A stretch of DNA of 64,000 nucleotides from NCBI GenBank assembly GCA_012270795.1, contig JAAXHO010000197.1, positions 41,813 to 105,812 on the forward strand, written 5' to 3'. A program made the position numbers and the translations under genes. Shown here in pieces: positions 7,370 to 51,737 of this stretch (within the stretch, counting starts at the first letter, position 1; each line of letters begins with the position of its first letter). This DNA is from Candidatus Poribacteria bacterium. GTDB lineage: Bacteria; Poribacteria; WGA-4E; WGA-3G. A model generated the notes under the pieces. It was not told the origin of the DNA. It saw nothing but the letters and a program-made list of their open reading frames with translations, and did no database searches.

Positions 7370-8746
7370 TTATGCATCTGGACGAGAAATATCATATTTG
7401 TTCATTTTTTTATAGAGGTTGCTTCTCTCAACTTCCAACACTTCTGCAGTTCTTCGGATATTCCAATCATTCTCTTTCAAAGCAGCAAGAATACACTCCG
7501 CTTCAGCAGAATCAACCATAGTGCTCAACGGTGTGTTAGACTGATATGTGGGTGCAGCATCCGCTATTTGTGCTGCATCTTTGTCAAGTGGTAAAACTTC
7601 AGCAACGTCGGTTGGTAAGATGATCTCTCTATTTACCATAATCAGCAGGCGTTCAACAATGTTTTTTAGTTCTCGGATGTTGCCAGGCCATTGGTAAGAT
7701 TGGAAAGTGGGGTATGCTTCTGAGGCAAAAGTTTTCGGTGCAGAAGCCATATTCATTTGCAGCTGCTCTGCAAAGCATTTTACCAATATTGGGATATCCT
7801 CTATACGTTCACGCAGAGGTGGCACGTCAATAGGTACAATTTTGAGGCGATAATATAGGTCGTTTCGGAACTGTCCCCGCTCAATTTCTGCTGGTAGGTT
7901 TTTATTTGTTGCTGCGATTATGCGGACATCAACATTGCGTATCTGCTGACTTCCGAGTCTCTCTACCTCGCCATATTCCAGCACGCGCAAAACTTTTGCC
8001 TGTGCCTTTAGGCTCATATCCCCAATTTCATCAAGGAAGAGCGTGCCACCGTCTGCCAGTTCAAACCGTCCCTGCCGCATAGAATCTGCCCCTGTAAATG
8101 CGCCGCGTTCATGTCCAAAAAGTTCGCTTTCGACGAGTTCTTCAGGTAATGCTGCACAGTTCAACGGGATAAAGGGTTTATCTGCCCGTTTGCTATACTG
8201 ATGAATTGCATTTGCTACCAGTTGCTTTCCAGTGCCGTTCTCACCAGAAATCAACACACCGAGATTGCTTGTTGCGACCTGACGGATTTCTGCTCGGAGT
8301 TTGTTCACAACGGGGCTCTTACCGATCATTTCATCTTCAATGCCAATTTGTGATTTCAGGATCTCATTTTCTTTGGCTAACCGCGAGAGTTCCAAAAACG
8401 GTTCTATATTGGATAGGATTTTGTCCATACTCACCGGTTTCGTTACATATCGCTTCGCGCCGAGTTCCATCGTTTTTGCGGCGATTTCGATATCCTGTTG
8501 TGCGGACATCATCACCACATGCAGCATGGGATGTCGTACCAGCATTTTCTGCAACGTCTCAACCCCATCCATACCATTCTCCATCATAATATCCAACAGC
8601 ACGAGGTCAATGTCACGAGATGCACAAAGTTGCAACGCCTTTTCTCCACTCGCTGCAGTCAAGGTTTCATAACCTTTGAGACTTAATCCTTGGGAAAGCA
8701 TTTTTAGTATATTTTTTTCGTCATCTACAATGAGGATCGTATTCAT
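7370..8746 (-). CDS. Sigma-54-dependent response regulator (NtrC family: receiver + AAA+ + Fis-type HTH)
   Basis: Receiver-domain start MNTILIVDDE, Walker A GENGTGKQLVA, GAFTGA motif (ERGAFTGA), and a C-terminal HTH. Confidence 0.9.
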   Translation of the reverse strand: MNTILIVDDEKNILKMLSQGLSLKGYETLTAASGEKALQLCASRDIDLVLLDIMMENGMDGVETLQKMLVRHPMLHVVMMSAQQDIEIAAKTMELGAKRYVTKPVSMDKILSNIEPFLELSRLAKENEILKSQIGIEDEMIGKSPVVNKLRAEIRQVATSNLGVLISGENGTGKQLVANAIHQYSKRADKPFIPLNCAALPEELVESELFGHERGAFTGADSMRQGRFELADGGTLFLDEIGDMSLKAQAKVLRVLEYGEVERLGSQQIRNVDVRIIAATNKNLPAEIERGQFRNDLYYRLKIVPIDVPPLRERIEDIPILVKCFAEQLQMNMASAPKTFASEAYPTFQSYQWPGNIRELKNIVERLLIMVNREIILPTDVAEVLPLDKDAAQIADAAPTYQSNTPLSTMVDSAEAECILAALKENDWNIRRTAEVLEVERSNLYKKMNKYDISRPDA

Positions 8747-8803
8747 ATTTTTTGCCTCTATATTGGAAAAGTCATTTTTTATTTACTCACGCCGCTCAAG
8801 TTT

Positions 8804-10759
8804 CTATTCCTGCGGTGTTGATTTTGTCACCAGTGGTATCAGCGCAGGTTGTGTATCATTAAGGTATGAAATTTCATCAAAAGTAATACATATTTTTGTT
8901 CCAACTTTCAGTTCCGATTCTACCACTATTTCTCCGCCGTGAACGGTAATAATTCGACGGACAATTGCCATGCCGAGTCCAGTACCATAAGGCTTTGTAG
9001 TGTAGTCCGGGGTAAAAAGGTTCTTCTGTGTCTCTTCAGACATGCCGTGTCCAGTATCTTGAACTTCCAAAGAGATATACCTACCCTTATTAGATATGGT
9101 GTTGCTCTGATTTTGTTCGTCAGTATTGCTACTCACGTTTTTGTCAGATATTGGTGTCGCATAAGTCCGCAAGGTAAGTGTCCCTCCATCTGGCATAGCC
9201 TCAATTGCGTTCTTCACAATGTTGCCGACTGAGCGTTCCATCTGTTCACGATCTAAAGAAAGATGTGGCAAGTCACCTAACTGTTTTTCAACAGTTATCT
9301 TTTGCGTCTGCGATAATTTTATGTATAACTTTAAAACGACTTCTACGATATCATTCAGATTCACTGGCTGTCGGTCAGGAACGGGTAATCTTGCATATTG
9401 ATGGAACTCATCTATTAGTCCACGTATACGGTCGACTTCTTCAATAATTGTATCCGTGCATTCTTGAAATATACTATCAAAGACTTCGGTTTTATCTTTT
9501 GCAGCTTGCAAATTCTCAACAGACAGTCGTATCGGAAAGAGTGGGTTTTTGACTTCATGCGCGAGTTGCCGTGCGACATCCCGCCACACAGCGATCCTTT
9601 CCGCTGTTCTATGTTCCTCCAAACTTCGCATTAATGCCTGCGCCATTTTATTAAATCCCTCTGCAAGTTCACCGACCTCTCCCTTAGATCGAACGTCAAG
9701 TTGATACGTAAGATTACCTGCACCGATCTCACTCACACCTTTCTGAAGTTGTGCGATTGGTCGTGTGATGCGTCTACTGACAAGGTAACTGCTGATGTAT
9801 ACAAGGAAAGCACCAGCACCGACACTCAACAGAATAATCATCCGCATGCGATCTTGCCAGAGAATGCGATCATCATGAGAATAGGCAATAATCAACTCTA
9901 CAAAAGGTAGTTGTTTTCTTTCAAAAAAAGGAGTGCTCAGAATGTCTGTGCGAACAACTGTGTAAGTGGGACTGTGGCGGTCCTTCTCTGGTACTTCTGT
10001 AGATGGTTGTTGTGGAATATCCTCTAAAGAGACGACCAAATCCTCAACGGGTTTTCCAGCTGCCGTATAAACTGTCATCTGCTGTTCCCATTTATCTTTT
10101 AACTCTAATCTATTCCCGGCGATATTGTTCAAGGGTATCCATTCCTCCTGTTCGTCCTTTTTTCGCACGAGAAAAATTGGATGTTCCGCGGGTTGGCTCA
10201 GCGATTCGCCTTCTAACCATTTTTGTAACGATCTTCCCCCTGTAACAAAACCCCAATCCCACCACTGTGTCACTTCAACGACCAACTGTGGTTCCTCACC
10301 TAAATTGATTACCCGTTCGCGAATAGTGCCTTTTCCCTGCTTGAACGTTTCATCTGTTTCGGCATGTGCGATCTCATGAATTTTGTACCCGATGTGTTTT
10401 TCATCAATCCGATTGCTGAGTACCAAAATTCCCTCATCATTACCGCATTCAAAGACATCAAAATCTGTTGTGGGAATATCCCGGATCCCCCCTCGTTCAG
10501 CTGTTCGCATCGCATTGAATACACCACGGTCTTCACCTGTTGTTTGTACCTGGTTGCGAATAGATTCTACGAAGAGCCTGTACAAATTGGAAATTGTTGT
10601 TTTTCTTTCTTCGACATCTTTGTCCAATTGCTCACTAAAAGTACGGTCTATGAGAAGACTCGCAATCCCAAAGATAATTGCAAACATGATCAGGAACACA
10701 AAACCGTAGGTAAAGAAAATCTTGTTTTGGAGCCGAAGCGAGGATAACCAGTAGAACAT
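8804..10759 (-). CDS. Sensor histidine kinase (two TM segments with a periplasmic domain, HisKA, HATPase_c)
   Basis: H-box HEVKNPLFPI and G-boxes DTGHGMS...GTGLGMAIV. It lies immediately upstream of the NtrC-type regulator on the same strand. Confidence 0.85.
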   Translation of the reverse strand: MFYWLSSLRLQNKIFFTYGFVFLIMFAIIFGIASLLIDRTFSEQLDKDVEERKTTISNLYRLFVESIRNQVQTTGEDRGVFNAMRTAERGGIRDIPTTDFDVFECGNDEGILVLSNRIDEKHIGYKIHEIAHAETDETFKQGKGTIRERVINLGEEPQLVVEVTQWWDWGFVTGGRSLQKWLEGESLSQPAEHPIFLVRKKDEQEEWIPLNNIAGNRLELKDKWEQQMTVYTAAGKPVEDLVVSLEDIPQQPSTEVPEKDRHSPTYTVVRTDILSTPFFERKQLPFVELIIAYSHDDRILWQDRMRMIILLSVGAGAFLVYISSYLVSRRITRPIAQLQKGVSEIGAGNLTYQLDVRSKGEVGELAEGFNKMAQALMRSLEEHRTAERIAVWRDVARQLAHEVKNPLFPIRLSVENLQAAKDKTEVFDSIFQECTDTIIEEVDRIRGLIDEFHQYARLPVPDRQPVNLNDIVEVVLKLYIKLSQTQKITVEKQLGDLPHLSLDREQMERSVGNIVKNAIEAMPDGGTLTLRTYATPISDKNVSSNTDEQNQSNTISNKGRYISLEVQDTGHGMSEETQKNLFTPDYTTKPYGTGLGMAIVRRIITVHGGEIVVESELKVGTKICITFDEISYLNDTQPALIPLVTKSTPQE

Positions 10760-10792
10760 AATTTAAGCATATCTCATTTATTCAATTAGCAC

Positions 10793-12226
10793 TTAACGCC
10801 TTTGCATGCTGCGTGCAATTTCTTCAGTGCGTTTTTTATATCCTTCAACTGCTGATTGATGGTAGGTCAACTCTTCCGCAAGCGTCGGAACGCCGTCGGT
10901 AAGGTGTAGTTCCTGCAATCGACCTTTCACTGCAACCGTATCCATGAGAGTTCGCATCAATTGGCATACATTTCGAATATCACGTCGAGGTAGGGTTAGC
11001 GTCACATTCGGAATGCCATTTTCGGTAAAGTCTGCCTCAGTGCCACGATAAGATGCCGTTTGGCAATCGTTCAATGAGAGGCCTTCAAACGCTTCTAATT
11101 CATTACCTTCATTTGTCTTTGGAATTGTTAGGTCTGCCCCGAGGTCTTCCCAATGGATAAAGACAATTGCCTTTTCCTTTGGTCCAGCGAGAATTCCGTT
11201 GAGGATGGAGTGGCTACTTGTCGGACCTTTCGCAGCAATCACATTGGAACCGATGTTGCGATCCTGAATAGATTCGATATAAAGTTGCACAAACCACTCT
11301 CCAAGTCTGATGTTGTCTGCATAGTTATAGAAAACGATGCTACCGGCCCCGTAGTATTTCTCAACAGAGTCAAGCCATAATGCCAGATGGTATGCAGTGT
11401 TGTGGGGGTGTGCATAAGGCAGCTGAAAATTCTTATCTGCATGTTGGGCACCCTCAACCGCTGCGTTTACCCTATCTTTCGGTGTCTCTCCTGCACCTGC
11501 TGTCATCGCCAAAAAGAACAAACCGACAGGTGAAAAGGCAGAGAAGCGACCACCGACTCCTTCTGGGACTGGAAGAACACCATACAATTCAGATTCTTGA
11601 TGTAATTGATAGAGAAGGCTTTTTGATGTCAATCCGGTCGTTGCGATAATCTGTTTTCGCCAGTTTACAACTTCTTTCTGGAGTCTGTCTTTGATAATCA
11701 TTAGCGTTGCGAGCGTTTCACCTGTTTGCCCCGATTTGCTAACCACATTGAGAAGCGTTTTGTGAAGTAAGTTGCGAGACTTTAGCATCTCAAGTAGTGA
11801 TTTAAGCCGAATCGGATCAAAGGTATCCCCTGTAAAATAGACCTCTGGTGAACCACCTCTTTCAGAACTTGACAACAGGTTGTGATACGGATGATTAGCG
11901 ATTTCGTGAAACACGCGCGCGCTCAAATCGGAAGCACCGATGCCAACAGTCACAAGCACAGAGAAATCATCTCTCGCTTTAGTGGATAACTCAAGCACAT
12001 CTTGAATATGTTCTGTTTGGAGATGACTACGTGTCCACACCCGCAAATACTGTTTTAATAGGGACAGTGGAGCACCCTCCTCCTCCCTGAATAGCGTCTG
12101 GATTTCCTCCAAACGCGTATCAACCAAGGATTCTTTATCTTCTGACTCTGTTTCTGCGCAAACAAGCATTCTGAGTCTTATGCCGGAATCGTCTCCAAAC
12201 TCTATCTGTTTTACCGCTGAATTCAT
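10793..12226 (-). CDS. pgi: Glucose-6-phosphate isomerase
   Basis: The PGI signature VGGRFSAFSPVGL and the overall pattern are present. The start is moved to MNSAVKQ, which has a strong GGAGG RBS. The longer annotated ORF includes an unlikely leader. Confidence 0.8.
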   Translation of the reverse strand: MNSAVKQIEFGDDSGIRLRMLVCAETESEDKESLVDTRLEEIQTLFREEEGAPLSLLKQYLRVWTRSHLQTEHIQDVLELSTKARDDFSVLVTVGIGASDLSARVFHEIANHPYHNLLSSSERGGSPEVYFTGDTFDPIRLKSLLEMLKSRNLLHKTLLNVVSKSGQTGETLATLMIIKDRLQKEVVNWRKQIIATTGLTSKSLLYQLHQESELYGVLPVPEGVGGRFSAFSPVGLFFLAMTAGAGETPKDRVNAAVEGAQHADKNFQLPYAHPHNTAYHLALWLDSVEKYYGAGSIVFYNYADNIRLGEWFVQLYIESIQDRNIGSNVIAAKGPTSSHSILNGILAGPKEKAIVFIHWEDLGADLTIPKTNEGNELEAFEGLSLNDCQTASYRGTEADFTENGIPNVTLTLPRRDIRNVCQLMRTLMDTVAVKGRLQELHLTDGVPTLAEELTYHQSAVEGYKKRTEEIARSMQRR

Positions 12227-22994: not shown

Positions 22995-23507
22995 GTGGAA
23001 GTCACCGTTCTGGTACTAAATGCAAGTTACGAAGCAATCAATGTTTGCAACCTTAGACGTGCCTTGAAGATGGTGTTCAAAGGCACTGCTCAGACAGAGG
23101 AAGTGTCTGATACGGAGATACAGTCACCATCAACTGCGGTCAAAGTTCCGCACGTGATCCGTTTGGTAAACTACGTTCATGTACCGCGTAGTGTTGTCAA
23201 GTTCTCACGTAAGAATGTCTTAGCGCGCGACAACCATACTTGTCAGTACTGTCATCGTGAACTCTCTGCATCCCTACTCACACTTGACCATGTTGTTCCC
23301 ATCTCAAAGGGAGGGAAAACGACATGGGATAATGTGGTAACCGCATGCAAACGATGCAATAACAAAAAGGGCAGTAGGATGCTTGATGAGACGCAGTTTA
23401 AGTTGAAACGTGTACCGAAAACGCCTTCAATTCTGACGTATTTGCAACTCAACCGTCATTTTAGAGGTTACCATCCGTCTTGGAAAAAATATCTTTATAT
23501 AAACTGA
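22995..23507 (+). CDS. HNH endonuclease family protein
   Basis: HNH motif CQYCHRELSASLLTLDHVVPISKGGKTTWDNVVTACKRCNNKKG. Confidence 0.8.
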   Translation: MEVTVLVLNASYEAINVCNLRRALKMVFKGTAQTEEVSDTEIQSPSTAVKVPHVIRLVNYVHVPRSVVKFSRKNVLARDNHTCQYCHRELSASLLTLDHVVPISKGGKTTWDNVVTACKRCNNKKGSRMLDETQFKLKRVPKTPSILTYLQLNRHFRGYHPSWKKYLYIN

Positions 23508-26340: not shown

Positions 26341-26478
26341 AGGAGCAGAGTCATTCAATTGTCACAAAGCATCATTGTTGGAGGGGTTTCTAACCCCGAT
26401 TTCTGCTGTTGTGTATCTCAAATCGGGGTTAGAAACCCCTCCAACAACAATGAAACCCGACAATTGGATGCCTCTGCA
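26341..26478. repeat. Nested MITE-like element: 19-bp terminal inverted repeats (GCAGAGtCATTCAATTGTC...GACAATTGgATGCCTCTGC) enclosing a 27-bp-armed hairpin with GGGGTTTCTAACCCC core
   Basis: The inner inverted repeat 26366-26438 is perfect (ttgttggaggggtttctaaccccgattt / aaatcggggttagaaacccctccaacaa). The outer inverted repeat recurs at 54552-54760. The element overlaps the annotated 5' end of jag. Confidence 0.75.
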
Positions 26479-27121
26479 AAAGGAGGGATGCCTCTTGCAA
26501 AACTATATTGAATCTGAAGCAGAAACTGTTGAAGAAGCAATCGAAATTGCTCTCACCGAACTTGATACAACCCGAGAACAAGTCAACATCATCATTATAA
26601 ATGAACCGACAAAAGGCATCCTGAGTTTTGGCGCGAAACCCGCAAAAGTACGCGCCACGTTAAAGGAAGATATAACAAATGCACCTGAAACTGTCCTGAA
26701 AGAAATACTCAAGCGAATCGGAATTGATGGTGAGATTGAATCCGACTTTAGTGATGGTAGTTTATACCTCAATATGGTTACCGACTCCCCAGCCCTTCTA
26801 ATCGGAAAACATGGGCAAACACTTGATGCTATTGAACGGATCCTCAATTGTATCATCAATAAAAATGCACTCGCTAAAAGAAAGGTTTTTGTTGATACTG
26901 AAGGTTACCGTGAACGCCGAGAGAATATGCTCGTTGACCTCGCTCATCAGGTAGCAGCAAAGGTTAGACGAACTAAGCAGGATGCTGTCCTTTCACCTAT
27001 GTCTGCTAAGGACCGCCGCATCATTCATATTACTTTACAACCGGACGATTCCGTTTCAACCTTCAGTCAAGGAGAAGGCGATATGCGCCGCGTTGTTGTT
27101 ACCAGACAAGACGATTATTGA
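26450..27121 (+). CDS. jag: Jag/KhpB-like RNA-binding protein (KH + R3H domains)
   Basis: C-terminal R3H (DRRIIHITLQPDDSVSTFSQGEGDMRRVVV) with a KH-like segment upstream. The N-terminus of the annotated ORF is encoded by the repeat element, so the true start is probably MKPDNW or MPLQKEG. Confidence 0.75.
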   Translation: MKPDNWMPLQKEGCLLQNYIESEAETVEEAIEIALTELDTTREQVNIIIINEPTKGILSFGAKPAKVRATLKEDITNAPETVLKEILKRIGIDGEIESDFSDGSLYLNMVTDSPALLIGKHGQTLDAIERILNCIINKNALAKRKVFVDTEGYRERRENMLVDLAHQVAAKVRRTKQDAVLSPMSAKDRRIIHITLQPDDSVSTFSQGEGDMRRVVVTRQDDY

Positions 27122-28607: not shown

Positions 28608-28974
28608 ACGCAATCTAAACACAATTCGTTCGTCACGTTCACATGTATGTTTTTCGTTAATGCAACCTTTCTTCACGCGCGGTGTAATTCAACATATTAC
28701 CAGATTATTTTGATTTCAATCTAATGATACGCGTGTGGAATTTATCGGGAAACCACATCTACTGACTGGAAAATAGGTTATATACCATATACCTTACTAT
28801 AAGATAAACACGAAAATTCATTTTCTTCTGGACAGACTTTGTTTTATGTGTTATTATGTTAGCAACTATTGAAGCGATATCAATGTTGCGTGGAATTTCT
28901 GCTCAACACCATAATTTAGGTTCGTGCCTAATTGATCGTACAAATACGCACAAATAAATATAAGGAGAGAATTA

Positions 28975-30114
28975 ATGATTAATTCTGTTTTTCACCGATA
29001 CACTCCCTGGCTGGCAGGATTCTGCGTGCTTTTGCTTCTGACAGTATCAATGCCTGTCCTTGCAGAAGGTGAAGGGGAAGCCAAACCAGACGAAAGCGAA
29101 GTCAAACAGGTCGTATGGGGAACGTCTATTGAGGAAGCAACCAAAATGTCCGTTGAAACGGGTAAACCGATTATGATGGACTTCTATACGGAGTGGTGAG
29201 GATGGTGTAAGCGGCTGGATGCCGACACATTCACCGATGAACGTATAGTTACTATTGCTGAGAAGTTCGTTCCAGTAAAGGTTAACCCTGAACTTAAAGA
29301 ACACCCCGAAAATGCTGAAGCGCAGAAAAAATACGGTGTTAGAGGGTTTCCCGCAATCCTATTCATCGCCCCCGATGGTGGTGTTATCAAAAATATCTCT
29401 GGTTACAAACCACCGGATCAATTCTTACCGGAAATGGAAGATGTTCTGAAAAAAGAGAAGGCATACCAAGAAGTATTGACAAAATTAAAGAAAATGCCTG
29501 ACGATCCGAAACTGAACAGTCAGATTGCCATTCTCTATTTGCAACGTCAACTACTTGAGAAAGCGATGCCAATCAGTGAGAAGATGCCTGATGATGTTGA
29601 TCTAAACCGTGCATTTGGTATCTACTATCTCGGCAAAAATCAAATGGAAAAAGCACTCAAAATCAGTGAGAAGATGCCTGATGATGTTGAGTTGAATACA
29701 GAATTTGCATTTGCATACCTGAAAACAGGGAAAATAAAAGAGGCACTCACGTACAGCGAGAAGGTCATGGCAAAAGACCCCGATAACGAATCGGGACAAC
29801 TGCCTAAATTGCACACCCAAATCGGTCTCGCTTATGCAATGCAACTTCAACGTAAACCTGGAGATGCAAATCTTGCCAAGAACGCTGTGAAGCACTTGAA
29901 AAAAGTGATTGACATGTATCCGAAAAGCGACGATTATGAACCTGCTCAATATTATCTGGGTGTTACATACATGCTCAATAAGCAATATGATAAAGCAACA
30001 GAAGTACTTGAGAAGTTAGCCAATCACGCTACTAACGAACAGATGAAACTCAGTGCAAATAATGTTCTGCAACGTCTGCAGCAGTTAACTACAGAAGACG
30101 AAACCGACAACTAA
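28975..30114 (+). CDS. Secreted thioredoxin-fold (Thioredoxin_7-like) + TPR-like repeat fusion with an in-frame TGA at the first CxxC position; candidate selenoprotein (UGWC)
   Basis: ORFs 28975-29199 and 29434-30114 are in the same frame, and the only intervening stop is TGA at 29197-29199. The context ...DFYTEW-TGA-GWCKRLD... matches the WCGWC active site of thioredoxin-like proteins. A hairpin lies 7-38 nt downstream (29204-29235; 4-bp GC upper stem, UGGAU loop). The C-terminal part has SEKMPDD-type repeats. Confidence 0.55.
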
Positions 30115-30857
30115 ACTTTTAAATTAGCAACTTCTGCGGGGGTAAGAAATCTATATTGCCCCTGCGGAAGATTGCCCAACCGCAACGTGCCGATACGTAT
30201 CCGTTTCAAACGGTTCACTCGGTGCCCCATCGCCTTAAACATCAGGCGTACCTGCCGTTTTTTCCCTTCATGTATAATTACCCTATATTTTGCTACTATT
30301 CCATATTTGTTTGTTTTCTTTTTAGTAAACATATTAAGAGCGTTTTTCACATCAAGTAGTTTTATGTTAGCAGGTGCTGTTTTCCCACCTGTTATTTCCA
30401 CACCGTTGCGTAGGCGTTCAAGTGAGCGTTTGTTCAAAACACCATTCACCCATGCAATATAGGTCTTATCTATTTCATGACTGGGATGCATCAACTGGTA
30501 AGCGAACTCTCCATCGTTGGTGAATAGTAAAAGACCTTCTGTCTCCAAATCTAAACGCCCCACTGGATAGATGGATTTAGGTAGGTCTGTTAGTAAGTCC
30601 ATCACGGTTGGTCGTCCGCGTTCATCATGACGGGTAGTTATATAACCTGCTGGCTTATTCAACATGAGATAGATACGTTCAGTAAGGGGTTCAACCTGTC
30701 TCCCTTCAAACCGAATGCAATCCTTTTCTACATCGATCGGGTATCCGGGAATGAGGATTGTTGTGCCGTTAACAGAGGCGTTTCCCTCACGAATGGCTCG
30801 CTTGATTGCGCGCCGCGATGCAATACCTGCGGAAGCGATATATTTTTCAAGACGCAC
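30111..30857 (-). CDS. rRNA pseudouridine synthase (RsuA/RluB family, S4 + PseudoU_synth_2)
   Basis: The N-terminal S4 domain MRLEKYIASAGIASRRAIKRAIREG..V and the catalytic region are present. Confidence 0.8.
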   Translation of the reverse strand: MRLEKYIASAGIASRRAIKRAIREGNASVNGTTILIPGYPIDVEKDCIRFEGRQVEPLTERIYLMLNKPAGYITTRHDERGRPTVMDLLTDLPKSIYPVGRLDLETEGLLLFTNDGEFAYQLMHPSHEIDKTYIAWVNGVLNKRSLERLRNGVEITGGKTAPANIKLLDVKNALNMFTKKKTNKYGIVAKYRVIIHEGKKRQVRLMFKAMGHRVNRLKRIRIGTLRLGNLPQGQYRFLTPAEVANLKV

Positions 30858-40381: not shown

Positions 40382-41371
40382 ATGAAAAAGAGTTTTACTA
40401 TATATCTTACCATTGGTGCCCTCTTTTACTGCATCATACTACTGACTTTCTGGATACGGATTCAGGGTGTACATAGACTACCCGCAGGGCAGTTTACTGA
40501 AAACGATGCCTATCTTTATCACTGGCACGCAAACATTATAGCGAAACACGGCGTGTTGCCTGCAAAGGATATGCACCGTTGGTTACCTAATGGAAGAGAT
40601 AACGGGTTACTTCTTTCGCTCTATTCCTACGCTATCGCTTACATACATAAAGCGGTGGCGTGGGCATTTCCAAAACTCACAATTAATCACATCCAACTTT
40701 ACCTCCCCGTATTCTGTTTTACCTTAGGACTTGGTGTGCTGTTTGTCTTTCTCACTCGCGTTCACGGACTGCTCTTTGCAACTGTCGTAGGTGTGCTATT
40801 GGCAACGCTACCCGGCAGCATTGAACGCAGTGCTGCAGGTTTTGGCGACAGAGACGCATGGTGCTGGATGTTCGGCATACTTGCTGTTATCAGTTACCTA
40901 TGGAAAGAGGTTATGCAGCCAGGTCGACGCAGGTTTGTTGCAACAATCCTTTCTGGATTCATCGTTTTTTTGGGTGGACTTTCCTGGGAAGCATTCGGAC
41001 TCTTTGTGCTGATAATACTCTGTATTGAGATATGGAAATTCTGTACCAACGAAACTGAACAGCACTTAAAAGAGTATCTAATATGGATACTCATGTTTGT
41101 TCCATTGCTCTACCTTTTAGCTCCCGCTTATCGTCGCGGTTACAGTTACTGGACGCACCTCGCTGTCTTAGTGCTCTTGCCACCCCTTGTGGTTTTCACA
41201 ATACGCGGAGCAAGGTATCTACTGCTTACTTATGTTGAGTTTCTGCAACCACATGCTCGAAAACTTGCATGGGGACTTACACTCGGTGCCATTGTATTAG
41301 GTATCGGTTATTTTTTTCCCAATCCAGCACGTTTGAAACAACCGTCTTCGCGCTTAAAGAGAGTCGACTGA
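40382..41371 (+). CDS. STT3/AglB/PglB-like oligosaccharyltransferase, N-terminal membrane half
   Basis: TM1 is followed by ENDAYLYHWHANII...LPAKDMHRWLPNGRD, which resembles the first external-loop motif of STT3/AglB. A DxD-like GFGDRD follows, with ~8 TM segments. The stop overlaps the next start (TGATG). Confidence 0.5.
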   Translation: MKKSFTIYLTIGALFYCIILLTFWIRIQGVHRLPAGQFTENDAYLYHWHANIIAKHGVLPAKDMHRWLPNGRDNGLLLSLYSYAIAYIHKAVAWAFPKLTINHIQLYLPVFCFTLGLGVLFVFLTRVHGLLFATVVGVLLATLPGSIERSAAGFGDRDAWCWMFGILAVISYLWKEVMQPGRRRFVATILSGFIVFLGGLSWEAFGLFVLIILCIEIWKFCTNETEQHLKEYLIWILMFVPLLYLLAPAYRRGYSYWTHLAVLVLLPPLVVFTIRGARYLLLTYVEFLQPHARKLAWGLTLGAIVLGIGYFFPNPARLKQPSSRLKRVD

Positions 41372-42774
41372 TGAAAGACATGACAGAACTCGTTGATCCA
41401 CATTATGGATATTGGACAGGGAGATATGGAACTGTTTTTATCTTAGGTAGCTTCGGTTTGATAATCACAAGTCTCCATCTTTGGAAACGGAATGGATTAC
41501 CTCTTGCTCTCGCGCTTTCTTTATTTTCCGCAACAACCTTTTTCCGATGGCAAATCAGCGGATGGATAGGAGAAAATACGTGCAACACGCTGTTTTTGAT
41601 TTCATTCGGATTCGCCGTTGGCTGTTTTGCCATTGCATCATTCCGAAAAGATACAGAGAAAAGTGAATTGGTAACGCTTGCTATACTTGCTTGGTTTCTC
41701 TTATGGGTAGCACTCTCGCGGGGAGGAAAACGCTATGACTTTTTTATTGGTCTTCCACTTGCTTACGGCACTGCATGGATCCTCTCTGTTTCACCTGGCT
41801 ACATCTTACAAAAACTTAAAAATGCAAAAATTCTGTATCCCCATGTTAACGAACAATGGGTTACGATTTGCTTTGCAATTATTGTGTTAATTCCAGTTTT
41901 CTTTTGGAATCCTCTCGGTGGTCATGCAAATCGGGCAATTGCAGCTGCAGCAACCTGGCGCAACCCTACCCCTGGTGAAGGAACACCACTTAGCAAAACT
42001 TATGAATGGATGAAAAATACACTACCGCAAGACACTGTGGTCGCTGCAAACTGGAGTTACGGAAGCCAACTTAATGTTTTCGGAGGAGTCAAAACTATTA
42101 CAGATCAGGACACTTTCCTCCCACATTGGATTCATCTCTATTATAGACACGTCTACTGCGCGCAATCTGAGCGCGAAGCATTAGAATTTCTTAAAACTCA
42201 CGGTGTAACACACCTCATGCTCAGAGAATGGGGAATAGTAAATCGTGCATATACCTATTCTTATATCGGCAGTGATGAAAAAGGCGATAAGAGATTCGGG
42301 TTCACACCTCTTGTTAAGGACAGGAACAAACAGCTCACAAGTCCAAAAAATATTCGATTTCGTTTTCAATATATAAGTACAGTGGGAATAGAGGTTAAAA
42401 ACCCGCCTGATCCCTACTTAAATGCGCGTCTAAAAACAGGAGCTGTCGCACGACTTCCTTATGTAATGTTCAAAGGTACTAAACGCCATGTTCCTCAATT
42501 ACCTAGCTATAGAAACCCACACGGTGGTGTAATTCTCTATTACGATCAAAATGGAACTTTGGAAAAAGCATATCATATTTCCAGTCGTGGTTGGAAATGT
42601 CTTGCTGTGCAGCTCTATTTTCTCGGTGAGATGTCTGATACGTTTGTTCCTGTCTACCCCGAAGAAGAAAATAATACAACCTCTGTCAAAGTTTGGAAAA
42701 TTAACTATCCATCTGATATAGAAGCAAATCCTAAATATCTTGTGACAGAACCCGAAACCTCTCATGAAAAATGA
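41371..42774 (+). CDS. STT3/AglB/PglB-like oligosaccharyltransferase, C-terminal half (TM segments + periplasmic domain) with divergent motifs
   Basis: About 6 TM segments, then a soluble domain. SVSP lies in a loop (compare SVSE/TIxE), and ANWSYGSQL lies where WWDYG is expected. The gene is translationally coupled to the previous ORF. Confidence 0.5.
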   Translation: MKDMTELVDPHYGYWTGRYGTVFILGSFGLIITSLHLWKRNGLPLALALSLFSATTFFRWQISGWIGENTCNTLFLISFGFAVGCFAIASFRKDTEKSELVTLAILAWFLLWVALSRGGKRYDFFIGLPLAYGTAWILSVSPGYILQKLKNAKILYPHVNEQWVTICFAIIVLIPVFFWNPLGGHANRAIAAAATWRNPTPGEGTPLSKTYEWMKNTLPQDTVVAANWSYGSQLNVFGGVKTITDQDTFLPHWIHLYYRHVYCAQSEREALEFLKTHGVTHLMLREWGIVNRAYTYSYIGSDEKGDKRFGFTPLVKDRNKQLTSPKNIRFRFQYISTVGIEVKNPPDPYLNARLKTGAVARLPYVMFKGTKRHVPQLPSYRNPHGGVILYYDQNGTLEKAYHISSRGWKCLAVQLYFLGEMSDTFVPVYPEEENNTTSVKVWKINYPSDIEANPKYLVTEPETSHEK

Positions 42775-43525
42775 AACCATTGAAGTCTCTATCGTCATGC
42801 CGTGTCTCAACGAAGAAGAAACACTTGGCATATGTATTGAAAAGGCACAATCCACCCTCAAATCTTTAGGGTATTCAGGTGAAGTTGTCATCGCTGATAA
42901 CGGTTCCATTGATAACTCCGTTGAAATTGCCAAACGTCTCGGTGCACGCGTTGTGCATCAACAGACACGAGGTTACGGTGCAGCTTATCTTGCTGGTTTT
43001 GCTGCTGCACAGGGGCAATACATCATCATGGGAGACTCCGATGATACATACGACTTCACAGATTTAGAACGATTCATAACACCCCTTCAAAATGGATATA
43101 ACCTCGTTATCGGCAATCGGTTTAAAGGTAAGATTTTACCGGGTGCTATGCCGTGGGCAAGACGTTATATCGGCAACCCAATACTTTCTGGAATGCTGCG
43201 CTTGTTATTTGGTACATATATATCAGATTCACACTGCGGGATGCGATCATTTACTACCGATGCATACAAACGGATGGACTTAAAAACAACAGGCATGGAA
43301 TTCGCCTCTGAAATGGTTATCAAAGCAGTCCAGTCTGAGTTGAAAATACTTGAAATTCCAATCACCTATCACCCCCGTGGCGGCGAGTCAAAACTTAATG
43401 CGATTCGGGACGCATGGCGACATATCCTGTTTATGATAAAATATAAACTCTCCAACCAGACAACACATGATAAAAAATCAGCAACTTCCACAGATCCCAA
43501 AAAAAACAATGGATCGCTTCCTTGA
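42764..43525 (+). CDS. Family 2 glycosyltransferase (polyprenyl-phosphate sugar synthase, DPM1/GtrB-like)
   Basis: VSIVMPCLNEE...ADNGSIDNS...GDSDDTY (DxD) and the overall GT2 pattern are present. Its start overlaps the previous stop. Confidence 0.8.
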   Translation: MKNETIEVSIVMPCLNEEETLGICIEKAQSTLKSLGYSGEVVIADNGSIDNSVEIAKRLGARVVHQQTRGYGAAYLAGFAAAQGQYIIMGDSDDTYDFTDLERFITPLQNGYNLVIGNRFKGKILPGAMPWARRYIGNPILSGMLRLLFGTYISDSHCGMRSFTTDAYKRMDLKTTGMEFASEMVIKAVQSELKILEIPITYHPRGGESKLNAIRDAWRHILFMIKYKLSNQTTHDKKSATSTDPKKNNGSLP

Positions 43526-44207: not shown

Positions 44208-45320
44208 TCACATTTCAGATGCTTGCAAATCCTGTGCAGCTTCTAATAACGCATTCGCCAAAAACTCTGGATTTACTTCGTCTTTACCCCGGAAGGTGCG
44301 CACCCGTTCACCGTTGACTTTTAGGACAGCCAGTTCTTTGCCGCCGAGATGGATACCGAGTTTTGCGTTGCGTGTTTCACCTGGACCGTTGACTTCACAT
44401 CCCATCACTGCTATATCCATGTTTATACCGTGTTTATCTAAAAGTGTTTCTGCGGCAGCGACGATGTTTTCATAATTTGCCTCAGGGTCACCACGTCCAC
44501 AGAAGGGACAAGAGATGACATTTAATATATTTTCTGCCATACCGAGTGCCCGCAGCAGTTCCTTTGCAGTCAGGACCTCTTCAACGGGGTCGCCTGTGAT
44601 AGAGATGCGGAGGGTGTCTCCGATTCCATCTAACAAGAGTGTGCCGATGCCGAGGGTGGACTTGACATGTGCGCGGCGCGGTGTGCCTGCTTCGGTTACG
44701 CCGAGGTGTAAGGGATAACGCACTTTCTCGGAAAGTAATCTGTTCGCCTTTATCATACGTAGTGGGTCGCTGGATTTGACGGAGATTGCGATGTCGGTAA
44801 AATCGTGTTCTTCACAGATTTTGACATGCCGCATGGCACTTTCTACTAATGCTTCTGCTGTGGGTGAGGGGTATTTATCTAATAGGTCTTTTTCAAGTGA
44901 ACCTTCGTTGACACCAATACGAATGGGGATATTTGCGGCTTTCGCAGCGGACAACACTTGTGCAATCCGTTCTTCGTTGCCGATGTTCCCCGGATTGATG
45001 CGAACCTTTGCGACACCTGCATCTACTGCATCCAGCGCGAATCTGTAGTTGAAGTGGATGTCGGCAACAATTGGGACAGGTGAGCGTTTCACGATTTGAC
45101 TAAGTGCTTTTGCGTCCTTTTCATCTGGTACAGCCACTCGTACGATTTGTGCACCTGCTTCTGTACACCGTTCAACTTGTGCTAATGTAGCGTCAATGTC
45201 GTGCGTTAGAGTAGTAGTCATCGTCTGGATGGAAATAGGATTTCCACCACCAATTGGCACGTTTCCTACATGTATGGTTCGGGTAGGTTTCCGATTATTT
45301 ATTTGAATAAGTTCTTTCAT
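44208..45320 (-). CDS. ispG: 4-hydroxy-3-methylbut-2-en-1-yl diphosphate synthase (flavodoxin)
   Basis: The IspG/GcpE pattern includes the C-terminal Fe-S Cys motif CPFCGR...C. Confidence 0.9.
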   Translation of the reverse strand: MKELIQINNRKPTRTIHVGNVPIGGGNPISIQTMTTTLTHDIDATLAQVERCTEAGAQIVRVAVPDEKDAKALSQIVKRSPVPIVADIHFNYRFALDAVDAGVAKVRINPGNIGNEERIAQVLSAAKAANIPIRIGVNEGSLEKDLLDKYPSPTAEALVESAMRHVKICEEHDFTDIAISVKSSDPLRMIKANRLLSEKVRYPLHLGVTEAGTPRRAHVKSTLGIGTLLLDGIGDTLRISITGDPVEEVLTAKELLRALGMAENILNVISCPFCGRGDPEANYENIVAAAETLLDKHGINMDIAVMGCEVNGPGETRNAKLGIHLGGKELAVLKVNGERVRTFRGKDEVNPEFLANALLEAAQDLQASEM

Positions 45321-47036: not shown

Positions 47037-50000
47037 TTACTTTGTGTCAGATTCAGGGGGCGGCCCATTGAGTGCATTTGAAACCAAGACGAGATCGGCA
47101 AGATCAACAATTCCATCTTTATTTACATCTGCGCTGTTATCTTTACCGACCTGTCCAAGACGGGATGCAACGAATTCAAGGTCTGCAGCATCTAACTGCC
47201 AGTCGCGGTTTGCATCTTCTGGGATACGTGGTGGTTCAACGATCCATGCACGATCAGCAATCGGGCGCGAATTTTTACCGTCTCTGTGTGTAAGAACAGC
47301 ATCTGTTAGTGTCAAAGTTACGTCAGTGCGTATTAGTACTTCAAAAGTGACGGTAGCGATTGTGCCATTGTCTATGGTGGAATTGGCAGTCGCGTTGCCT
47401 GTGAGTGTGATGGAATTTTCTGCTACGACTGGGGGTGGAGTTTTCCAGTTTCTTGATTTTTGGTTGCCTTCGGTGTTAGGAATATATCGGAGTGCTGTTG
47501 CATCATACTTCAACTTGAATTGGTATCCTGTGACATTTTGCCCATCGGTCATGTTAATGTTAAAGGTCAATTGTTTGCCTGTGGGTGGAGATTGGACAGA
47601 GAGAGGGGTGATGTTTAGGCGCGTGTCAGGTTTTGATTTCATTTGCCATAAAAGCACAGTGCCGTCTGTGCTACCACTCACAAGCGTTGTGCCGTCCGGT
47701 GAAAACGCAAGCGAGGTGACCGGAAGTGTATGGTTGGTTGGGATGGTCCGACTTTCTCCCGTTTCTACATCCCAAATTTTAATAATCCAATTGTAATTTG
47801 ATAGAACTATAGCTGCGAGTGTGGTGCCATCCGGTGAAAACATCATAGAGTTTGGTTTTATTGAGCTGACTTTGAAGGTCGATTTAAGTTTACTAGTACT
47901 TGTTTCCCGAAGTTTGATGGAGGCTTCACTGTAGTGGGCGAATGTATTCCCATCAGGTGAGAATGCAACTGAGGGCACTGAATGGGTATTCTCTGTAAAT
48001 GCAGCGAATTGTTCACCAGTTTTTATATGCCATAATCGGATCGTCATATCGGGTTTTTCAACATCCTGATTTGGTCTACTTATACCTGCAAGTGTATTGC
48101 CATCCGGCGAGAATGTGGTGGAAGTAATATACCCTGTGGGGACCCAGAGAGTTGCTTTATGTTCTCCAGTATGCGTCCTTAACAGTGGCATTGAAGGACC
48201 TCTTGAACTGGCAAAAGTTTCACCATCCGGAGCAAACGCTAAAGCATGCACATTTTTTGAACTAAAGATTCGTTTGTGTTGTTGGGTTTGGATATTCCAT
48301 AAGAAAGTCCCCTCACGCCAACTGTTACTTGCCAGTGTTCGGTTGTCTGGTAAAAACAAAACGGACGAAATAGGGGATTCATGACCTTTGAGTATTCCTT
48401 TGTGTTGTCGGTTTTGCAGATCCCATAACTGAATTGTCCTATCGTGGACATATTCATCTTCACTTGCGGTAGCAAGGATGGTATTATCCGGGGAAACAGC
48501 AACAGAAGTGACTGCTGTAGTATGTCCTTTAAGGATAAGGCGTGTTTCTCTGGTTTTCACGTCCCATAAACGTATTTCCCCGCGAATACCTGCACTTGCA
48601 AGGGTTTTTCCATCAGGTGAAAACGCGACCGAATAAAGCATTTCTGTGTGTCCTTCTAATGTCGCTATGATATTGCCCGTATCTGCATCCCAGAGGCGAA
48701 CGGTTTTGTCAAGGCTTACGCTCGCAAGGGTTTGCCCATCATTAGAGAACTCCATACCAACACGGGCACCTCCCTTATAGTATGATGTCGTAGCCCCATT
48801 ATCCGCAAACCTTACGGAAGCAACCGGGGCTGTGTGTCCTATGAGTTTATTTTGTAGTTCTTCAGTGTGTGCGTTCAATATTTGAATTGCCTTTGCGTCC
48901 TCGTTCCGTCCTAACATTACAGTGGCGCGTCGTGTACCATCCGGTGAATTAATGTAGTTGGAACCAGGCATTGAGTATAACCAACGCCATTTCTTATCAA
49001 GTGTTTTGGAATCTCTATCAATGGATTTTAGATATTTGCCAGTGTGCGGATCCCATACCATTATGATTTCGTAAGATGACCCCGAGTTTTCATTCCGACT
49101 CCTCGCAGCAAGCGTTCTGCCGTCTGGTGAAAATGCTATGGCTTTGATTCTTGCCTCGTTATTGAGGATCTTTAGCAATTCGCCTGTATGCGGATTCCAC
49201 AAGCGCATGGTGCGATCATAACTACCACTCGCAAGGAGATCGCCATAAGGAGAAATGGCTATACACGTAACAGGTTTCGTATGTCCTGCTAATAGAGCAA
49301 GTTCCTTACCAGTGGTCGCGTCATAAATCCAAATACCTGCAGAACCGCCTACCATGATCCACTTGTTATCTGGGGAAAACATTATATCATTGACAGTTCC
49401 TTTTCCTAATCGAGCTTTTGCCTCTTTCGGCAGCGAAAATTGGGTGTGATCTGCTGCAGCGTCCGACCATGGCGGTGCAACAACGGAACCCCTCACAACG
49501 ATAGGACTAGCGAGGCTGCCATCCCCCTTTTCAAGCCGTACTCTCGGTAGGTTGAGGGTTGAAGGTTTCGTTGCAATGACTTCAAACGTAACACTTGCAA
49601 GCGTGCCATCGCCATTGCTGGGTTCTGCAGTAGTTTTTGATACAAGTTTCACACGATTTGGATACACGTCTTTGGTGGAAAAAGATGCATCTGTGGAAAG
49701 ATAATCCCCTTTTTCACTTGAAACATAGCGGAGGGCAGTGGTATCAAAATCCATCGTGACCTGATATCCTTTAACGTTCTTTGCACCAACAACATTAACG
49801 TTTAATTTGAGCTTTTCACCTAGGGCAGGGGATTGAATTGGAGAGGGTGATATACGAACAATGGCATTCGTATCAACAAAAGGTGTTGCGTCCCAGAAAA
49901 TGACAGTGCCATCAAGACTGCTGCTAATGAGGGTTTCATCAGTAGTGGAGAATATCAGTGAAATTATTTCGGCTGTGTGCCCAACTAAAGTATCTCTGTG

Positions 50001-50159
50001 ATATCCAGTTGCTGTATTCCACAGTCGAATGGTACGATCCTTACTTCCACTTGCAAGTGTTTTGCCATCAGTAGAAAATGCTAACACACTGATGCTAGCT
50101 GAAACTCTTTGTGTCCGATGCCGAAAATTGATGTGTAAGTGCCCGTTTTTAAATTCCAT
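47037..50159 (-). CDS. Giant WD40-repeat protein with two cohesin-like beta-sandwich modules and a C-terminal dockerin; probably the C-terminal ~1040 aa of a longer frameshifted gene
   Basis: Many WD repeats (GHT..V.S.AFSPDG..LAS.S.D.T..LW). Two ~130-aa modules (…GYQVTMDFDTTALRYVSSEKGDYLS…, …GYQFKLKYDATALRYIP…) are homologous to one in the 51734 gene. The C-terminal DANRDWQLDAADLEFV...DVNKDGIVDLADLVLV is dockerin type I-like. Confidence 0.75.
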   Translation of the reverse strand: MEFKNGHLHINFRHRTQRVSASISVLAFSTDGKTLASGSKDRTIRLWNTATGYHRDTLVGHTAEIISLIFSTTDETLISSSLDGTVIFWDATPFVDTNAIVRISPSPIQSPALGEKLKLNVNVVGAKNVKGYQVTMDFDTTALRYVSSEKGDYLSTDASFSTKDVYPNRVKLVSKTTAEPSNGDGTLASVTFEVIATKPSTLNLPRVRLEKGDGSLASPIVVRGSVVAPPWSDAAADHTQFSLPKEAKARLGKGTVNDIMFSPDNKWIMVGGSAGIWIYDATTGKELALLAGHTKPVTCIAISPYGDLLASGSYDRTMRLWNPHTGELLKILNNEARIKAIAFSPDGRTLAARSRNENSGSSYEIIMVWDPHTGKYLKSIDRDSKTLDKKWRWLYSMPGSNYINSPDGTRRATVMLGRNEDAKAIQILNAHTEELQNKLIGHTAPVASVRFADNGATTSYYKGGARVGMEFSNDGQTLASVSLDKTVRLWDADTGNIIATLEGHTEMLYSVAFSPDGKTLASAGIRGEIRLWDVKTRETRLILKGHTTAVTSVAVSPDNTILATASEDEYVHDRTIQLWDLQNRQHKGILKGHESPISSVLFLPDNRTLASNSWREGTFLWNIQTQQHKRIFSSKNVHALAFAPDGETFASSRGPSMPLLRTHTGEHKATLWVPTGYITSTTFSPDGNTLAGISRPNQDVEKPDMTIRLWHIKTGEQFAAFTENTHSVPSVAFSPDGNTFAHYSEASIKLRETSTSKLKSTFKVSSIKPNSMMFSPDGTTLAAIVLSNYNWIIKIWDVETGESRTIPTNHTLPVTSLAFSPDGTTLVSGSTDGTVLLWQMKSKPDTRLNITPLSVQSPPTGKQLTFNINMTDGQNVTGYQFKLKYDATALRYIPNTEGNQKSRNWKTPPPVVAENSITLTGNATANSTIDNGTIATVTFEVLIRTDVTLTLTDAVLTHRDGKNSRPIADRAWIVEPPRIPEDANRDWQLDAADLEFVASRLGQVGKDNSADVNKDGIVDLADLVLVSNALNGPPPESDTK

Positions 50160-51737
50160 AGGTGGACTTTACCATAGTTGGTTCCGCTTGCAAGCATTGA
50201 GTTGTCTGGTGAGAATGCTAATACTTCTGTGAATCTATCTTTTTTGGAAATGGTTGCTTTATGTTGTGCAGTAACAGTGTCCCACAACTGAATGCTAGAG
50301 TCCCTACCCATCGTAGCAAGCATGCTACCATCTTCAGAGAATACCATCAAGGTAACAGGGTCTGTATGCTTTTTCAGGATTGCTTTTTGTTTACCTGTCT
50401 GTGTATCCCACAATTCCACTGCACCATCCCTTTTGCCCAAGGCAAGTATTGTTTCATCTGGCGACAATGTTCTTGAATAGGCACTCCTTGTTGAAATAAC
50501 TTCATCAACGGTTAGTGTGCCTTCTTTTAGAAGTGTCCCTGTGCGCGCATCCCACAATAGATGTTCTTTCGCACTTTTGCTTGAGAACGTTACTCCATCT
50601 TGTGAAAAGGCAATAGAGGTAATTTCTTCTGTATGTTCAGTAAGACTTGCTTTCTGTTTGAAAGTATCAACATCCCACAACTGTATTTCTCTATTTCCTG
50701 TTGTTGTAAGTGTCTTGTTATCTGGAGACAGTGCTATAAGCGGCATGTATAGTGTATGAAAAAGTGTGCTTTTATATTGGTCTGTTTGTGCATCCCAGAA
50801 CCGAATTGTCCCGTCAGCACTGCCAGATGTAAGTACACCTCTGTCTGGTGAAAATGTTAAAGTGGTAATACTTTCAGTATGTCCAGCAAGTGTTTCCAAT
50901 AGTGTACCTGTTTTTGGGTTCCATAGTCGTATTGTATTGTCCCATCCGCCACTGGCAAGTATTACACCATTTGGAGAGAATGCGACTGCATTGATACTTC
51001 TGGTATGTTCTGTGAGTGTCTCTAATAGTTTACCTGTTTTTGGGTTCCACAGGTGAATTGTATTGTCCCATCCACCACTGGCAAGTATTGCTCCATCTGG
51101 TAAGAATGCGACTGCAGAAATTGGTTTTTTATTCCCAGTGAGGATTCCCTTGCTACTTCCTGACGGAACGTCCCACAATCGAATTGTTCCGTCTGTATTT
51201 CCACGTGCCAGCATCTTTCCATCCGGCGAATACGCAAGAGCATTGCGATTGCCATTGTGTTCTGTAATCTTATTTTTCCGTTTGAGTGTATCCGCATCCC
51301 ACAACTGAATGTGATGACCTACGATTGCTATTGTTTTGCCATCTGGCGAAAACGTTACTGTACTCATATTTCCTGTGAGAGTGGTTTTATGTTTCCCAGT
51401 TTTAGGATTCCATAGTCGGACTGTTCTATCATAACTTGCACTTGCAAGAGTCTCACCATCTGGTGAAAACGCAACTGCCGTTACTGGCTGCGTGTGTCCT
51501 GTTAATGAAGAAAAGTTCTTCCCATGTATGTGCATCATATAACCATGTCCCGATATAAGTTCCTACTGCAAGCAGTTTACCATCAGGCGAATACGCCATA
51601 TCAGTGATCTGTCCTCTACCGATACGCGCGATGGCATTTTCAGGGAGTGCCCATTGAGACGAATCTTCAGCAAAACCATTTGATAAACAGACAAAAGATA
51701 ACAGCAATGTGGCAAATAGAACACTTATAGTTTTCAT
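50081..51737 (-). pseudogene. N-terminal part (signal peptide + WD40 repeats) of the same giant WD40 gene, broken by single-base frameshifts at ~51527 and ~50100-50125
   Basis: ORF 51453-51737 (signal peptide ...LYDAHTWEEL...) and ORF 50081-51538 (MMHIHGKNFSSLTGHTQ...) join as ...LYDAHTGKNFSSLTGHTQPV if one T is removed (aca[t]ggg). ORF 50081-51538 ends ...GIGHKEFQLASVC*, while the overlapping frame gives HRTQRVSASISVLAFSTDGK, which is the start of ORF 47037-50159. Confidence 0.6.

Follow-up and report, generated by a model that had tools for sequence, protein, structure and literature searches.

A conserved in-frame UGA in a Candidatus Poribacteria thioredoxin-TPR gene is probably read as selenocysteine

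Introduction

The window analyzed here is a 64-kb stretch of a Candidatus Poribacteria contig, taken as a whole and numbered from its first base, and our subject is one gene within it (28975-30114, on the + strand, as are all of its features described below) whose reading frame contains a single internal TGA, at 29197-29199. With a probability of roughly 0.9, judged from comparative sequence evidence, this TGA encodes selenocysteine (Sec) and the gene specifies an exported selenoprotein, in which a thioredoxin-fold domain is followed by a tetratricopeptide-repeat (TPR) domain. The locus displays the features expected of a selenoprotein gene: a conserved in-frame UGA with coding sequence on both sides, homologues with cysteine (Cys) at the same site, a hairpin that fits the model of the bacterial Sec insertion sequence (SECIS; bSECIS for the bacterial model), and selection acting at the level of the RNA. 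Reading the UGA as Sec would restore a conserved, exported redox enzyme to a major phylum of sponge symbionts, and would document the use of selenium by Poribacteria symbionts outside the cytoplasm. It does not change current knowledge of how selenoproteins work.

One reading frame through an internal TGA

Between the ATG at 28975 and the terminal TAA (30112-30114), frame 1 contains no stop other than the TGA at 29197-29199, in agreement with the first-pass annotation of this DNA, which had pointed out that two listed open reading frames (ORFs; 28975-29199 and 29434-30114) share one frame and are parted by this codon alone. The complete coding sequence, 379 codons including Sec75, is colinear over its full length with 23 Poribacteria orthologues. 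The TGA stands in the peptide context DFYTEW-TGA-GWCKRLD, that is, at position 1 of a U-G-W-C redox motif (U denoting Sec), and the resolving Cys of this UxxC, Cys78 (TGT, 29206-29208), is invariant in 24/24 orthologues.

A protein-database search returned 79 relatives, and those bearing organism names are all Candidatus Poribacteria except for one from Ignavibacteria. Scanning one genome per species gave 23 Poribacteria loci with a full-length or nearly full-length tblastn match to the query, at 49-91% amino acid identity, which together with the window make up the set of 24 orthologous sequences used throughout. The codon homologous to 29197-29199 is TGA in all 24 of these species-level sequences, and the true stops of the Poribacteria orthologues are TAA or TAG. 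TGA also occurs in more distant relatives that were retrieved on the basis of protein identity (L027, L028, L030/L031 and L032), and a scan of metagenome contigs added seven TGA forms together with 73 forms that have Cys, as TGC or TGT, at that codon. Overall, TGA is found in 35/35 stop-containing homologues, 24 at the species level and 11 on further contigs, from independent assemblies of varied samples and sequencing technologies. The first-pass annotation had left it to the orthologues to decide between TGA and a TGY Cys codon; they have TGA, not TGY, and Cys appears at this position in more distant homologues, for example in P0073, with DFYTDWCGWCKRLD, and also in P0075 and P0077. By our reading, two of the metagenome TGA forms combine an apparent lipoprotein-type N-terminus with a different helical C-terminal domain, and one is a stand-alone protein of 183 residues.

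The ratio of nonsynonymous to synonymous substitution rates (dN/dS, by the Nei-Gojobori method across the 24 orthologues) amounts to 0.21 over the 29 codons of the thioredoxin domain that lie upstream of the TGA, 0.16 over those downstream of it (aa 76-153) and 0.15 over the TPR domain, with a range of 0.15-0.35 over all four gene segments. Purifying selection is thus seen on both flanks of the TGA, and we therefore conclude that the gene is read through this codon, to the exclusion of a pseudogene or of two separate genes. The interval 28975-30114 is one intact gene, which public Poribacteria records mis-split or truncate at the TGA.

A putative SECIS hairpin

Just downstream of the TGA, and within the coding sequence, lies a hairpin (29205-29228) that encodes the peptide C-K-R-L-D-A-D-T. 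Its upper stem pairs CGGC (29212-29215; nt 16-19 when the U of the UGA is counted as nt 1) with GCCG (29221-29224; nt 25-28) beneath an apical UGGAU loop (29216-29220), its lower stem pairs GUGU (29205-29208) with ACAC (29225-29228), and a 3-nt bulge lies between the two stems. The CGGC/GCCG stem and UGGAU loop had already been proposed in the first-pass annotation, within 29204-29235, and that segment does fold, with an energy of -10.1 kcal/mol, as compared with -12.2 kcal/mol for 29200-29240 and -6.8 kcal/mol for the 4-bp stem alone. The bSECIS model, the bSECISearch consensus for elements of the E. coli fdhF type, specifies a loop of 3-9 nt with a G in its first two positions, an upper stem of 4-16 bp, a distance of 16-37 nt from UGA to loop and a minimum free energy of -7.5 kcal/mol or below (PMC13188914). 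With its 5-nt loop, G at loop position 2 and again at the next, 4-bp stem, 16-nt spacing and -10.1 to -12.2 kcal/mol in its extended form, the hairpin falls within every one of these limits, stem length and spacing both lying at the lower bound. The combined pattern of TGA plus hairpin is observed once in the window, against 0.01 occurrences expected by chance.

Comparative evidence argues strongly for selection on this hairpin at the RNA level. Of 60 conserved columns whose codons are four-fold or more degenerate, just four have zero codon entropy, namely R80, L81 and, where translation starts, codons 4-5. In the orthologues R80 is CGG in 24/24, L81 is CTG in 24/24 and A83 is GCC in 23/24, and each of these three codons makes up only ~13% of its own codon family in this genome. 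A deep-sea clade (L030, L031, L036 and L038) replaces the CGGC/GCCG stem by CUGC/GCAG, through an Arg-to-Leu change together with a synonymous GCC-to-GCA change, such that a G-C pair gives way to a U-A pair and pairing is restored.

The hairpin is also tied to the state of the codon. It is present at the exact register in 35/35 TGA forms as opposed to 1/73 Cys forms (Fisher p = 1e-27, for sequences that are not phylogenetically independent), and the conservation in related genomes that the first-pass annotation had asked for is indeed found. The Cys form L042 is instructive in this regard, for it lacks a hairpin while encoding the same peptide, C-D-R-L-D-A-D, by way of AGG TTA GAT GCT. The sole Cys form that does have one, L046 (1588-1635), carries a DsbA-like CPHC motif and the identical 13-nt CGGCUGGAUGCCG in the same register, which suggests a recent switch from Sec to Cys. 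Sec and Cys forms that share a peptide and differ in the hairpin amount to a natural experiment, one that could make models of the bacterial SECIS more precise at the lower end of their size range.

A tandem second paralogue was seen in one Poribacteria metagenome-assembled genome (MAG), where it occupies 8293-9606 (+) of L014, immediately upstream of the main copy (10001-11158). It reads DFYTDS-U-DFC-DRLDADTYTN, with a TGA and the same hairpin, apparently lacks an N-terminal signal sequence, and may be a cytoplasmic version of the protein.

Protein domains and structure

The predicted protein opens with a putative signal peptide or signal anchor at aa 1-30 (28975-29064), where H8/R9 precede a hydrophobic core running from W12 to A30. 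Hydropathy peaks at 2.0-2.5 over aa 10-30, an apparent VLA/EGE junction and an acidic linker follow, and the model of an orthologue, described below, shows a low-confidence helix at its N-terminus.

The thioredoxin-fold domain, of the DsbD-gamma/DsbH type, extends over aa 44-165 (29104-29469) and so spans the TGA. When Pfam was run on the window protein with Cys substituted at codon 75, Thioredoxin_2 (PF13098) scored 58.3 bits against a cut-off of 27, Thioredoxin_7 (PF13899) 48.1 against 27 and Thioredox_DsbH (PF03190) 42 against 27, all three alignments crossing residue 75. The best solved relative by sequence, 2kuc, a Bacteroides Thioredoxin_7 protein described as a "disulphide isomerase", likewise aligns across the TGA, over aa 51-154.

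The remainder of the protein, aa 166-379 (29470-30111), is a TPR/helical-repeat domain. TPR_19 (58.8 bits, cut-off 25), TPR_2 (33.4, cut-off 27) and other TPR families match the C-terminal half; a thioredoxin fold joined to TPR-like SEKMPDD repeats had been named in the first-pass annotation. Within this domain three tandem 30-residue KMPDD units, with the pattern (I)SEKMPDDVxLNxxFxxYYLxxxxxxKAL, begin at 29491, 29581 and 29671 (29491-29760 in all) and form a direct repeat in the DNA with a spacing of 90 nt. Copy number among orthologues ranges from 0 (P0056, P0058) to 4, in L009 and L018-L020, which are 402-aa forms. An identical 30-nt core (29571-29600 and 29661-29690) is shared by two of the units in the window, a sign of duplication or gene conversion in the recent past.

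The AlphaFold model is of a full-length orthologue, P0056, and not of the window protein itself; it was built from a 30-sequence alignment, with a mean predicted local distance difference test score (pLDDT) of 93.3 and a predicted template modeling score (pTM) of 0.81. It shows one thioredoxin fold across the TGA site, in which the Sec position (residue 62) lies between strand beta1 (53-57) and helix alpha1 (63-72), at the N-terminus of that helix. CxxC motifs of the thioredoxin fold classically occupy this position, and the alignments to Pfam families, PDB entries and the model, together with Cys in the 73 homologues, concur with the placement of the TGA at the first Cys of a thioredoxin-like motif that the first-pass annotation had put forward. 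Toward the C-terminus the model has a wholly helical domain of high confidence. In Foldseek searches against the PDB, the whole chain is best matched by E. coli YbbN/CnoX (3qou; E = 1.4e-6 over 295 aligned columns), and the catalytic domain by DsbH (2ju5) and the gamma domain of DsbD (2fwf/1vrs), the latter with a template modeling (TM) score of ~0.8 and a root-mean-square deviation (rmsd) of 2.2 A.

Weighing Sec against other readings of the UGA

A number of observations weigh against the assignment of Sec. Neither selA, selB or selD nor a tRNA-Sec gene was found in the 64-kb window or in the 10 kb past each of its ends, in a search that combined Pfam scans of 40 window ORFs with the precomputed Pfam matches of genes lying up to 10 kb beyond the ends; ARAGORN detected no tRNA gene in the window, and the tRNAs that it called in the related loci were all ordinary ones. 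Rfam reported no SECIS and no tRNA-Sec, whether for the whole window at the gathering thresholds or for 29100-29350 at permissive ones, the matches in these scans being confined to chance C/D-box snoRNA hits. The stability of the hairpin is unexceptional relative to shuffled sequence (z = -0.27), for which reason the case for it is a comparative and not a thermodynamic one. The stem is invariant within the 24 Poribacteria sequences, among which covariation is nil, and the compensatory change described above is known from a single clade, made up of four contigs that are closely related. Finally, a close relative, L033/P0001, has TGG in place of the TGA.

This last copy (L033, 3001-4173) is 95% identical in nucleotide sequence to L003/L004, and its TGG has a W-to-S change on either side, with other odd substitutions in the copy as well. 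Because the contig is named "5x", apparently for 5-fold coverage, and because its neighboring mnmE and rluB genes are fragmented, we treat this TGG as unreliable, the copy representing either sequencing noise or a gene in decay.

As to the decoding machinery, the published record lends indirect support to its presence in the phylum, by way of COG tables that cover three other Poribacteria genomes and a report on hydrogenases. Most bins of sponge symbionts are reported to have SelA and SelB together (Slaby et al. 2017, PMC5649159), and the counts given for SelA/SelB/SelD are 2/1/1 in Poribacteria bin70, 4/1/2 in bin44 and 2/1/1 in Ca. Poribacteria WGA-3G (Table S4, PMC5649159). Sec-containing group 4 [NiFeSe] hydrogenases have in addition been described from Poribacteria MAGs in a 2026 survey (PMC13582414). 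The occurrence of the TGA form in 23/23 of the Poribacteria species genomes recovered with the gene fits the enrichment of SelA and SelB in sponge symbionts.

The alternative that survives best, to which we nonetheless give little credence, is that the UGA is decoded without selenium, either by hairpin-stimulated near-cognate readthrough that inserts Trp, Cys or Arg, or as a sense codon under genetic code 4 or 25. The lack of sel genes in the window and its 10-kb flanks would fit such decoding, as would the one low-coverage relative that truly reads TGG and the database protein P0056, which shows W at the Sec position. P0056 was considered as a Trp variant and rejected as such: its contig (L032, 85-981) reads TGA, and the gene translated under table 11 does not yield the database protein. 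Most probably this W is artefactual, the product of a translation table in which TGA encodes Trp, and gene calls of this sort can mask selenoproteins as apparent Trp variants. Against decoding without selenium stands the site itself, the catalytic Cys of a CxxC, at which homologues have Cys and where Trp or Arg would destroy the active site. So, too, do the hairpin, with the geometry of a SelB-type SECIS, and the SelA, SelB and SelD reported for bin70, bin44 and WGA-3G.

The sense-codon version of this idea founders on the use of TGA elsewhere in the window. TGA terminates full-length, Pfam-complete genes, namely jag (26375-27121), an HNH endonuclease gene (22995-23507), a GT2 gene (42764-43525) and ispG (44208-45320), and it forms the end of 4/25 Pfam-supported genes and of 10/45 long open frames. 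Among in-frame TGA junctions with open flanks, the context is protein-like in just 1/10, this being 29197. Genome-wide recoding is therefore excluded. The first-pass annotation had likewise taken TGA to be a normal stop, and the four genes just named bear it out, although the example that it chose (41369-41371) is a weak one, for that ORF looks frameshifted. A scan of the window and ~700 kb of related loci for further conserved genes with in-frame TGA returned only off-frame or antisense shadows of real genes.

A second alternative would have two genes here, a 74-residue secreted peptide ending at the TGA and a cytoplasmic TPR protein initiated at the internal Met of 29434. Public annotation is on its side, in that ENA ERZ23495086 scaffold_38 annotates the window gene as two ORFs, one 74 aa and the other 226 aa long, and most database homologues are N-terminally truncated; nearly all public gene calls for the Poribacteria homologues are without the N-terminal 25-45% of the protein, and the named entries are labelled "hypothetical" or "TPR repeat". 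The internal Met starts on which the gene callers settle, however, differ from species to species and are not conserved. Such a split would moreover break off the thioredoxin fold after beta1, and aa 76-153 would go untranslated in spite of a dN/dS of 0.16, whereas Pfam, PDB and AlphaFold all take the two halves as a single domain. We regard two genes as scarcely credible. A pseudogene or a sequencing error, with a TGY Cys codon mutated or misread to TGA, can draw on the several overlapping, frameshift-like ORF pairs of the window (e.g., 40382-41371 with 41269-42774) and is effectively refuted by the same TGA in 35 independent assemblies from differing samples and technologies, by purifying selection on both of its flanks, and by a linked hairpin under synonymous-site constraint.

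Genomic context and other features of the window

The gene follows rnpA, yidC, jag and mnmE, in that order, and on its 3' side it converges on genes for an rluB-like pseudouridine synthase and a HAD hydrolase; the same gene order surrounds the locus in distant relatives. No redox-related Pfam domains occur in the neighboring genes. A Shine-Dalgarno sequence, AAGGAG (28962-28967), can be read 7 nt 5' of the ATG, and in the 367-nt gap after mnmE a consensus scan picks out a candidate sigma-70-like promoter (28829-28857: TGGACA, a 17-nt spacer and TATTAT, with an extended-10 TG). At the other end, there is an overlap of a few bases between the TAA (30112-30114) and the terminus of the convergent rluB-like ORF (30111-30857, - strand), and no convincing intrinsic terminator was found between the two genes.

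Elsewhere in the window, same-strand ORF pairs overlap by 50-100 nt at 40382-41371/41269-42774, 42764-43525/43467-44045, 13091-13705/13653-14627 and 47037-50159/50081-51538, with WD40 proteins and a fragmentary STT3-like glycosyltransferase among them. In the one pair that was checked, 40382-41371/41269-42774, the two ORFs are in different frames. These pairs look like frameshifts, whether real or assembly errors, much as the first-pass annotation had supposed in setting the other apparent lesions of the window, as frame-shifting, apart from the frame-preserving TGA. Three very large WD40 beta-propeller proteins, of 1040, 485 and 870 aa, are encoded in a row at 47037-54346 (-), and WD40 (COG2319) counts are high in Poribacteria bins (Slaby et al. 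Table S4, PMC5649159). Small HNH endonuclease genes are scattered over the same 126-kb contig (window 22995-23507 (+); L115, 2384-2659; L116, 5059-5478), one of them lying directly upstream of rnpA.

Proposed mechanism

On the Sec reading, the ribosome would decode the UGA at 29197-29199 as selenocysteine, the hairpin just 3' of it, with its 4-bp G+C stem and UGGAU loop, serving in the mRNA as the putative docking site of SelB carrying Sec-tRNA(Sec). The product would begin with a membrane anchor or a signal peptide that can be cleaved, continue with a thioredoxin domain of the DsbD-gamma/DsbH type and end in a TPR solenoid. Within the U-G-W-C motif Sec75 would be the attacking residue and Cys78 the resolving one. 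We infer from this arrangement that the protein is probably a periplasmic thiol-disulfide (selenylsulfide) exchange enzyme, acting as either a reductase or an isomerase, whose TPR domain may hold a client or partner protein.

A more ambitious proposal can be built on the resemblance to CnoX, in which the family would be a periplasmic, selenium-based counterpart of that chaperedoxin. Here the TPR solenoid would capture oxidatively damaged envelope proteins, with the number of KMPDD units tuning the length of its groove, and the Sec-Cys center would reduce the sulfenic acids or mixed disulfides of these clients. The SECIS, which itself codes for peptide (K/D-R-L-D-A), and the active site would form a compact cassette that moves as a unit across phyla; the same hairpin occurs in forms from Poribacteria, in stand-alone ones and in those whose N-terminus looks like that of a lipoprotein. 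Were all of this correct, the protein would represent an adaptation to oxidant exposure inside sponge tissue. With client capture, Sec-Cys reduction and the cassette all included, we consider this counterpart of CnoX unlikely.

Comparison with known systems

Thioredoxin-fold proteins with a UxxC motif are the commonest class of bacterial selenoproteins. The window protein is like them in having its predicted Sec as the first residue of a UxxC where helix alpha1 begins, in its Cys homologues, and in a coding-region SECIS directly downstream. Among the families covered in a review of selenoproteins are a "Thiol:disulfide interchange protein" (UxxC; PF13098), the Trx7/PDZ (seleno)protein and the DsbD-like TsoB (PMC13188914). 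The first of these (Table 1, PMC13188914; its reference 12) is approached most directly, through the above-cut-off match to Thioredoxin_2; relative to that family (reference WP_011366075.1, compared by description only), the window protein adds a predicted signal peptide and a TPR domain of ~210 residues. That review uses neither the term "TPR" nor the term "tetratricopeptide", and the literature collection searched holds no paper that joins selenocysteine, UGA, thioredoxin, tetratricopeptide and periplasmic.

The NCBIfam families trx7_PDZ_seleno (NF041199) and seleno_TsoB (NF045694) are, like the window protein, Thioredoxin_7/DsbD-like selenoproteins with a fused second domain. Its scores nevertheless lie far below those that define the two families, at 24.6 as opposed to 300 bits for NF041199, over profile positions 2-60 of 390, and 71.8 as opposed to 805 bits for NF045694, over the C-terminal DsbD-like part of the profile only. 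The motifs, too, are different, with CxxU in Trx7/PDZ and UxxxxU in TsoB (PMC13188914) as against UxxC here, and so are the fusion partners, PDZ or rhodanese in those families as against TPR in the window protein.

In its catalytic domain the window protein most resembles the gamma domain of DsbD and DsbH, which provide the best structural and sequence matches, and with which it would share a location outside the cytoplasm. It departs from both in its predicted Sec in place of the attacking Cys and in the GW dipeptide that follows, where these have VA or VS, and from DsbD in lacking an attached DsbD membrane domain. The NCBIfam models for DsbD and DsbH, like the two selenoprotein models above, are matched over the thioredoxin domain only and far below their cut-offs, with scores of 54.5 against 330 and 40.7 against 190.

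The thioredoxin-plus-TPR architecture, which the first-pass annotation had thought unusual, proves not to be so. Cys versions of it occur in other phyla (P0073-P0079), and E. coli YbbN/CnoX, the top whole-chain match in Foldseek, is built to the same two-domain plan. CnoX is cytoplasmic and has no catalytic CxxC, its motif being SQHC, in contrast to the predicted signal peptide and intact UxxC of the window protein. The orientation of the domains differs as well, with a whole-chain rmsd of ~20 A, and the hydrophobic N-terminal signal would place the window protein outside the cytoplasm and hence outside the chaperedoxin class, CnoX/YbbN being a cytoplasmic holdase. By Pfam, the window protein belongs to Thioredoxin_2/Thioredoxin_7 together with the TPR families, and it fits no curated selenoprotein family among those tested. 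With Sec at codon 75 it would be a further thioredoxin-fold UxxC selenoprotein, and as such a member of a well-known bacterial kind.

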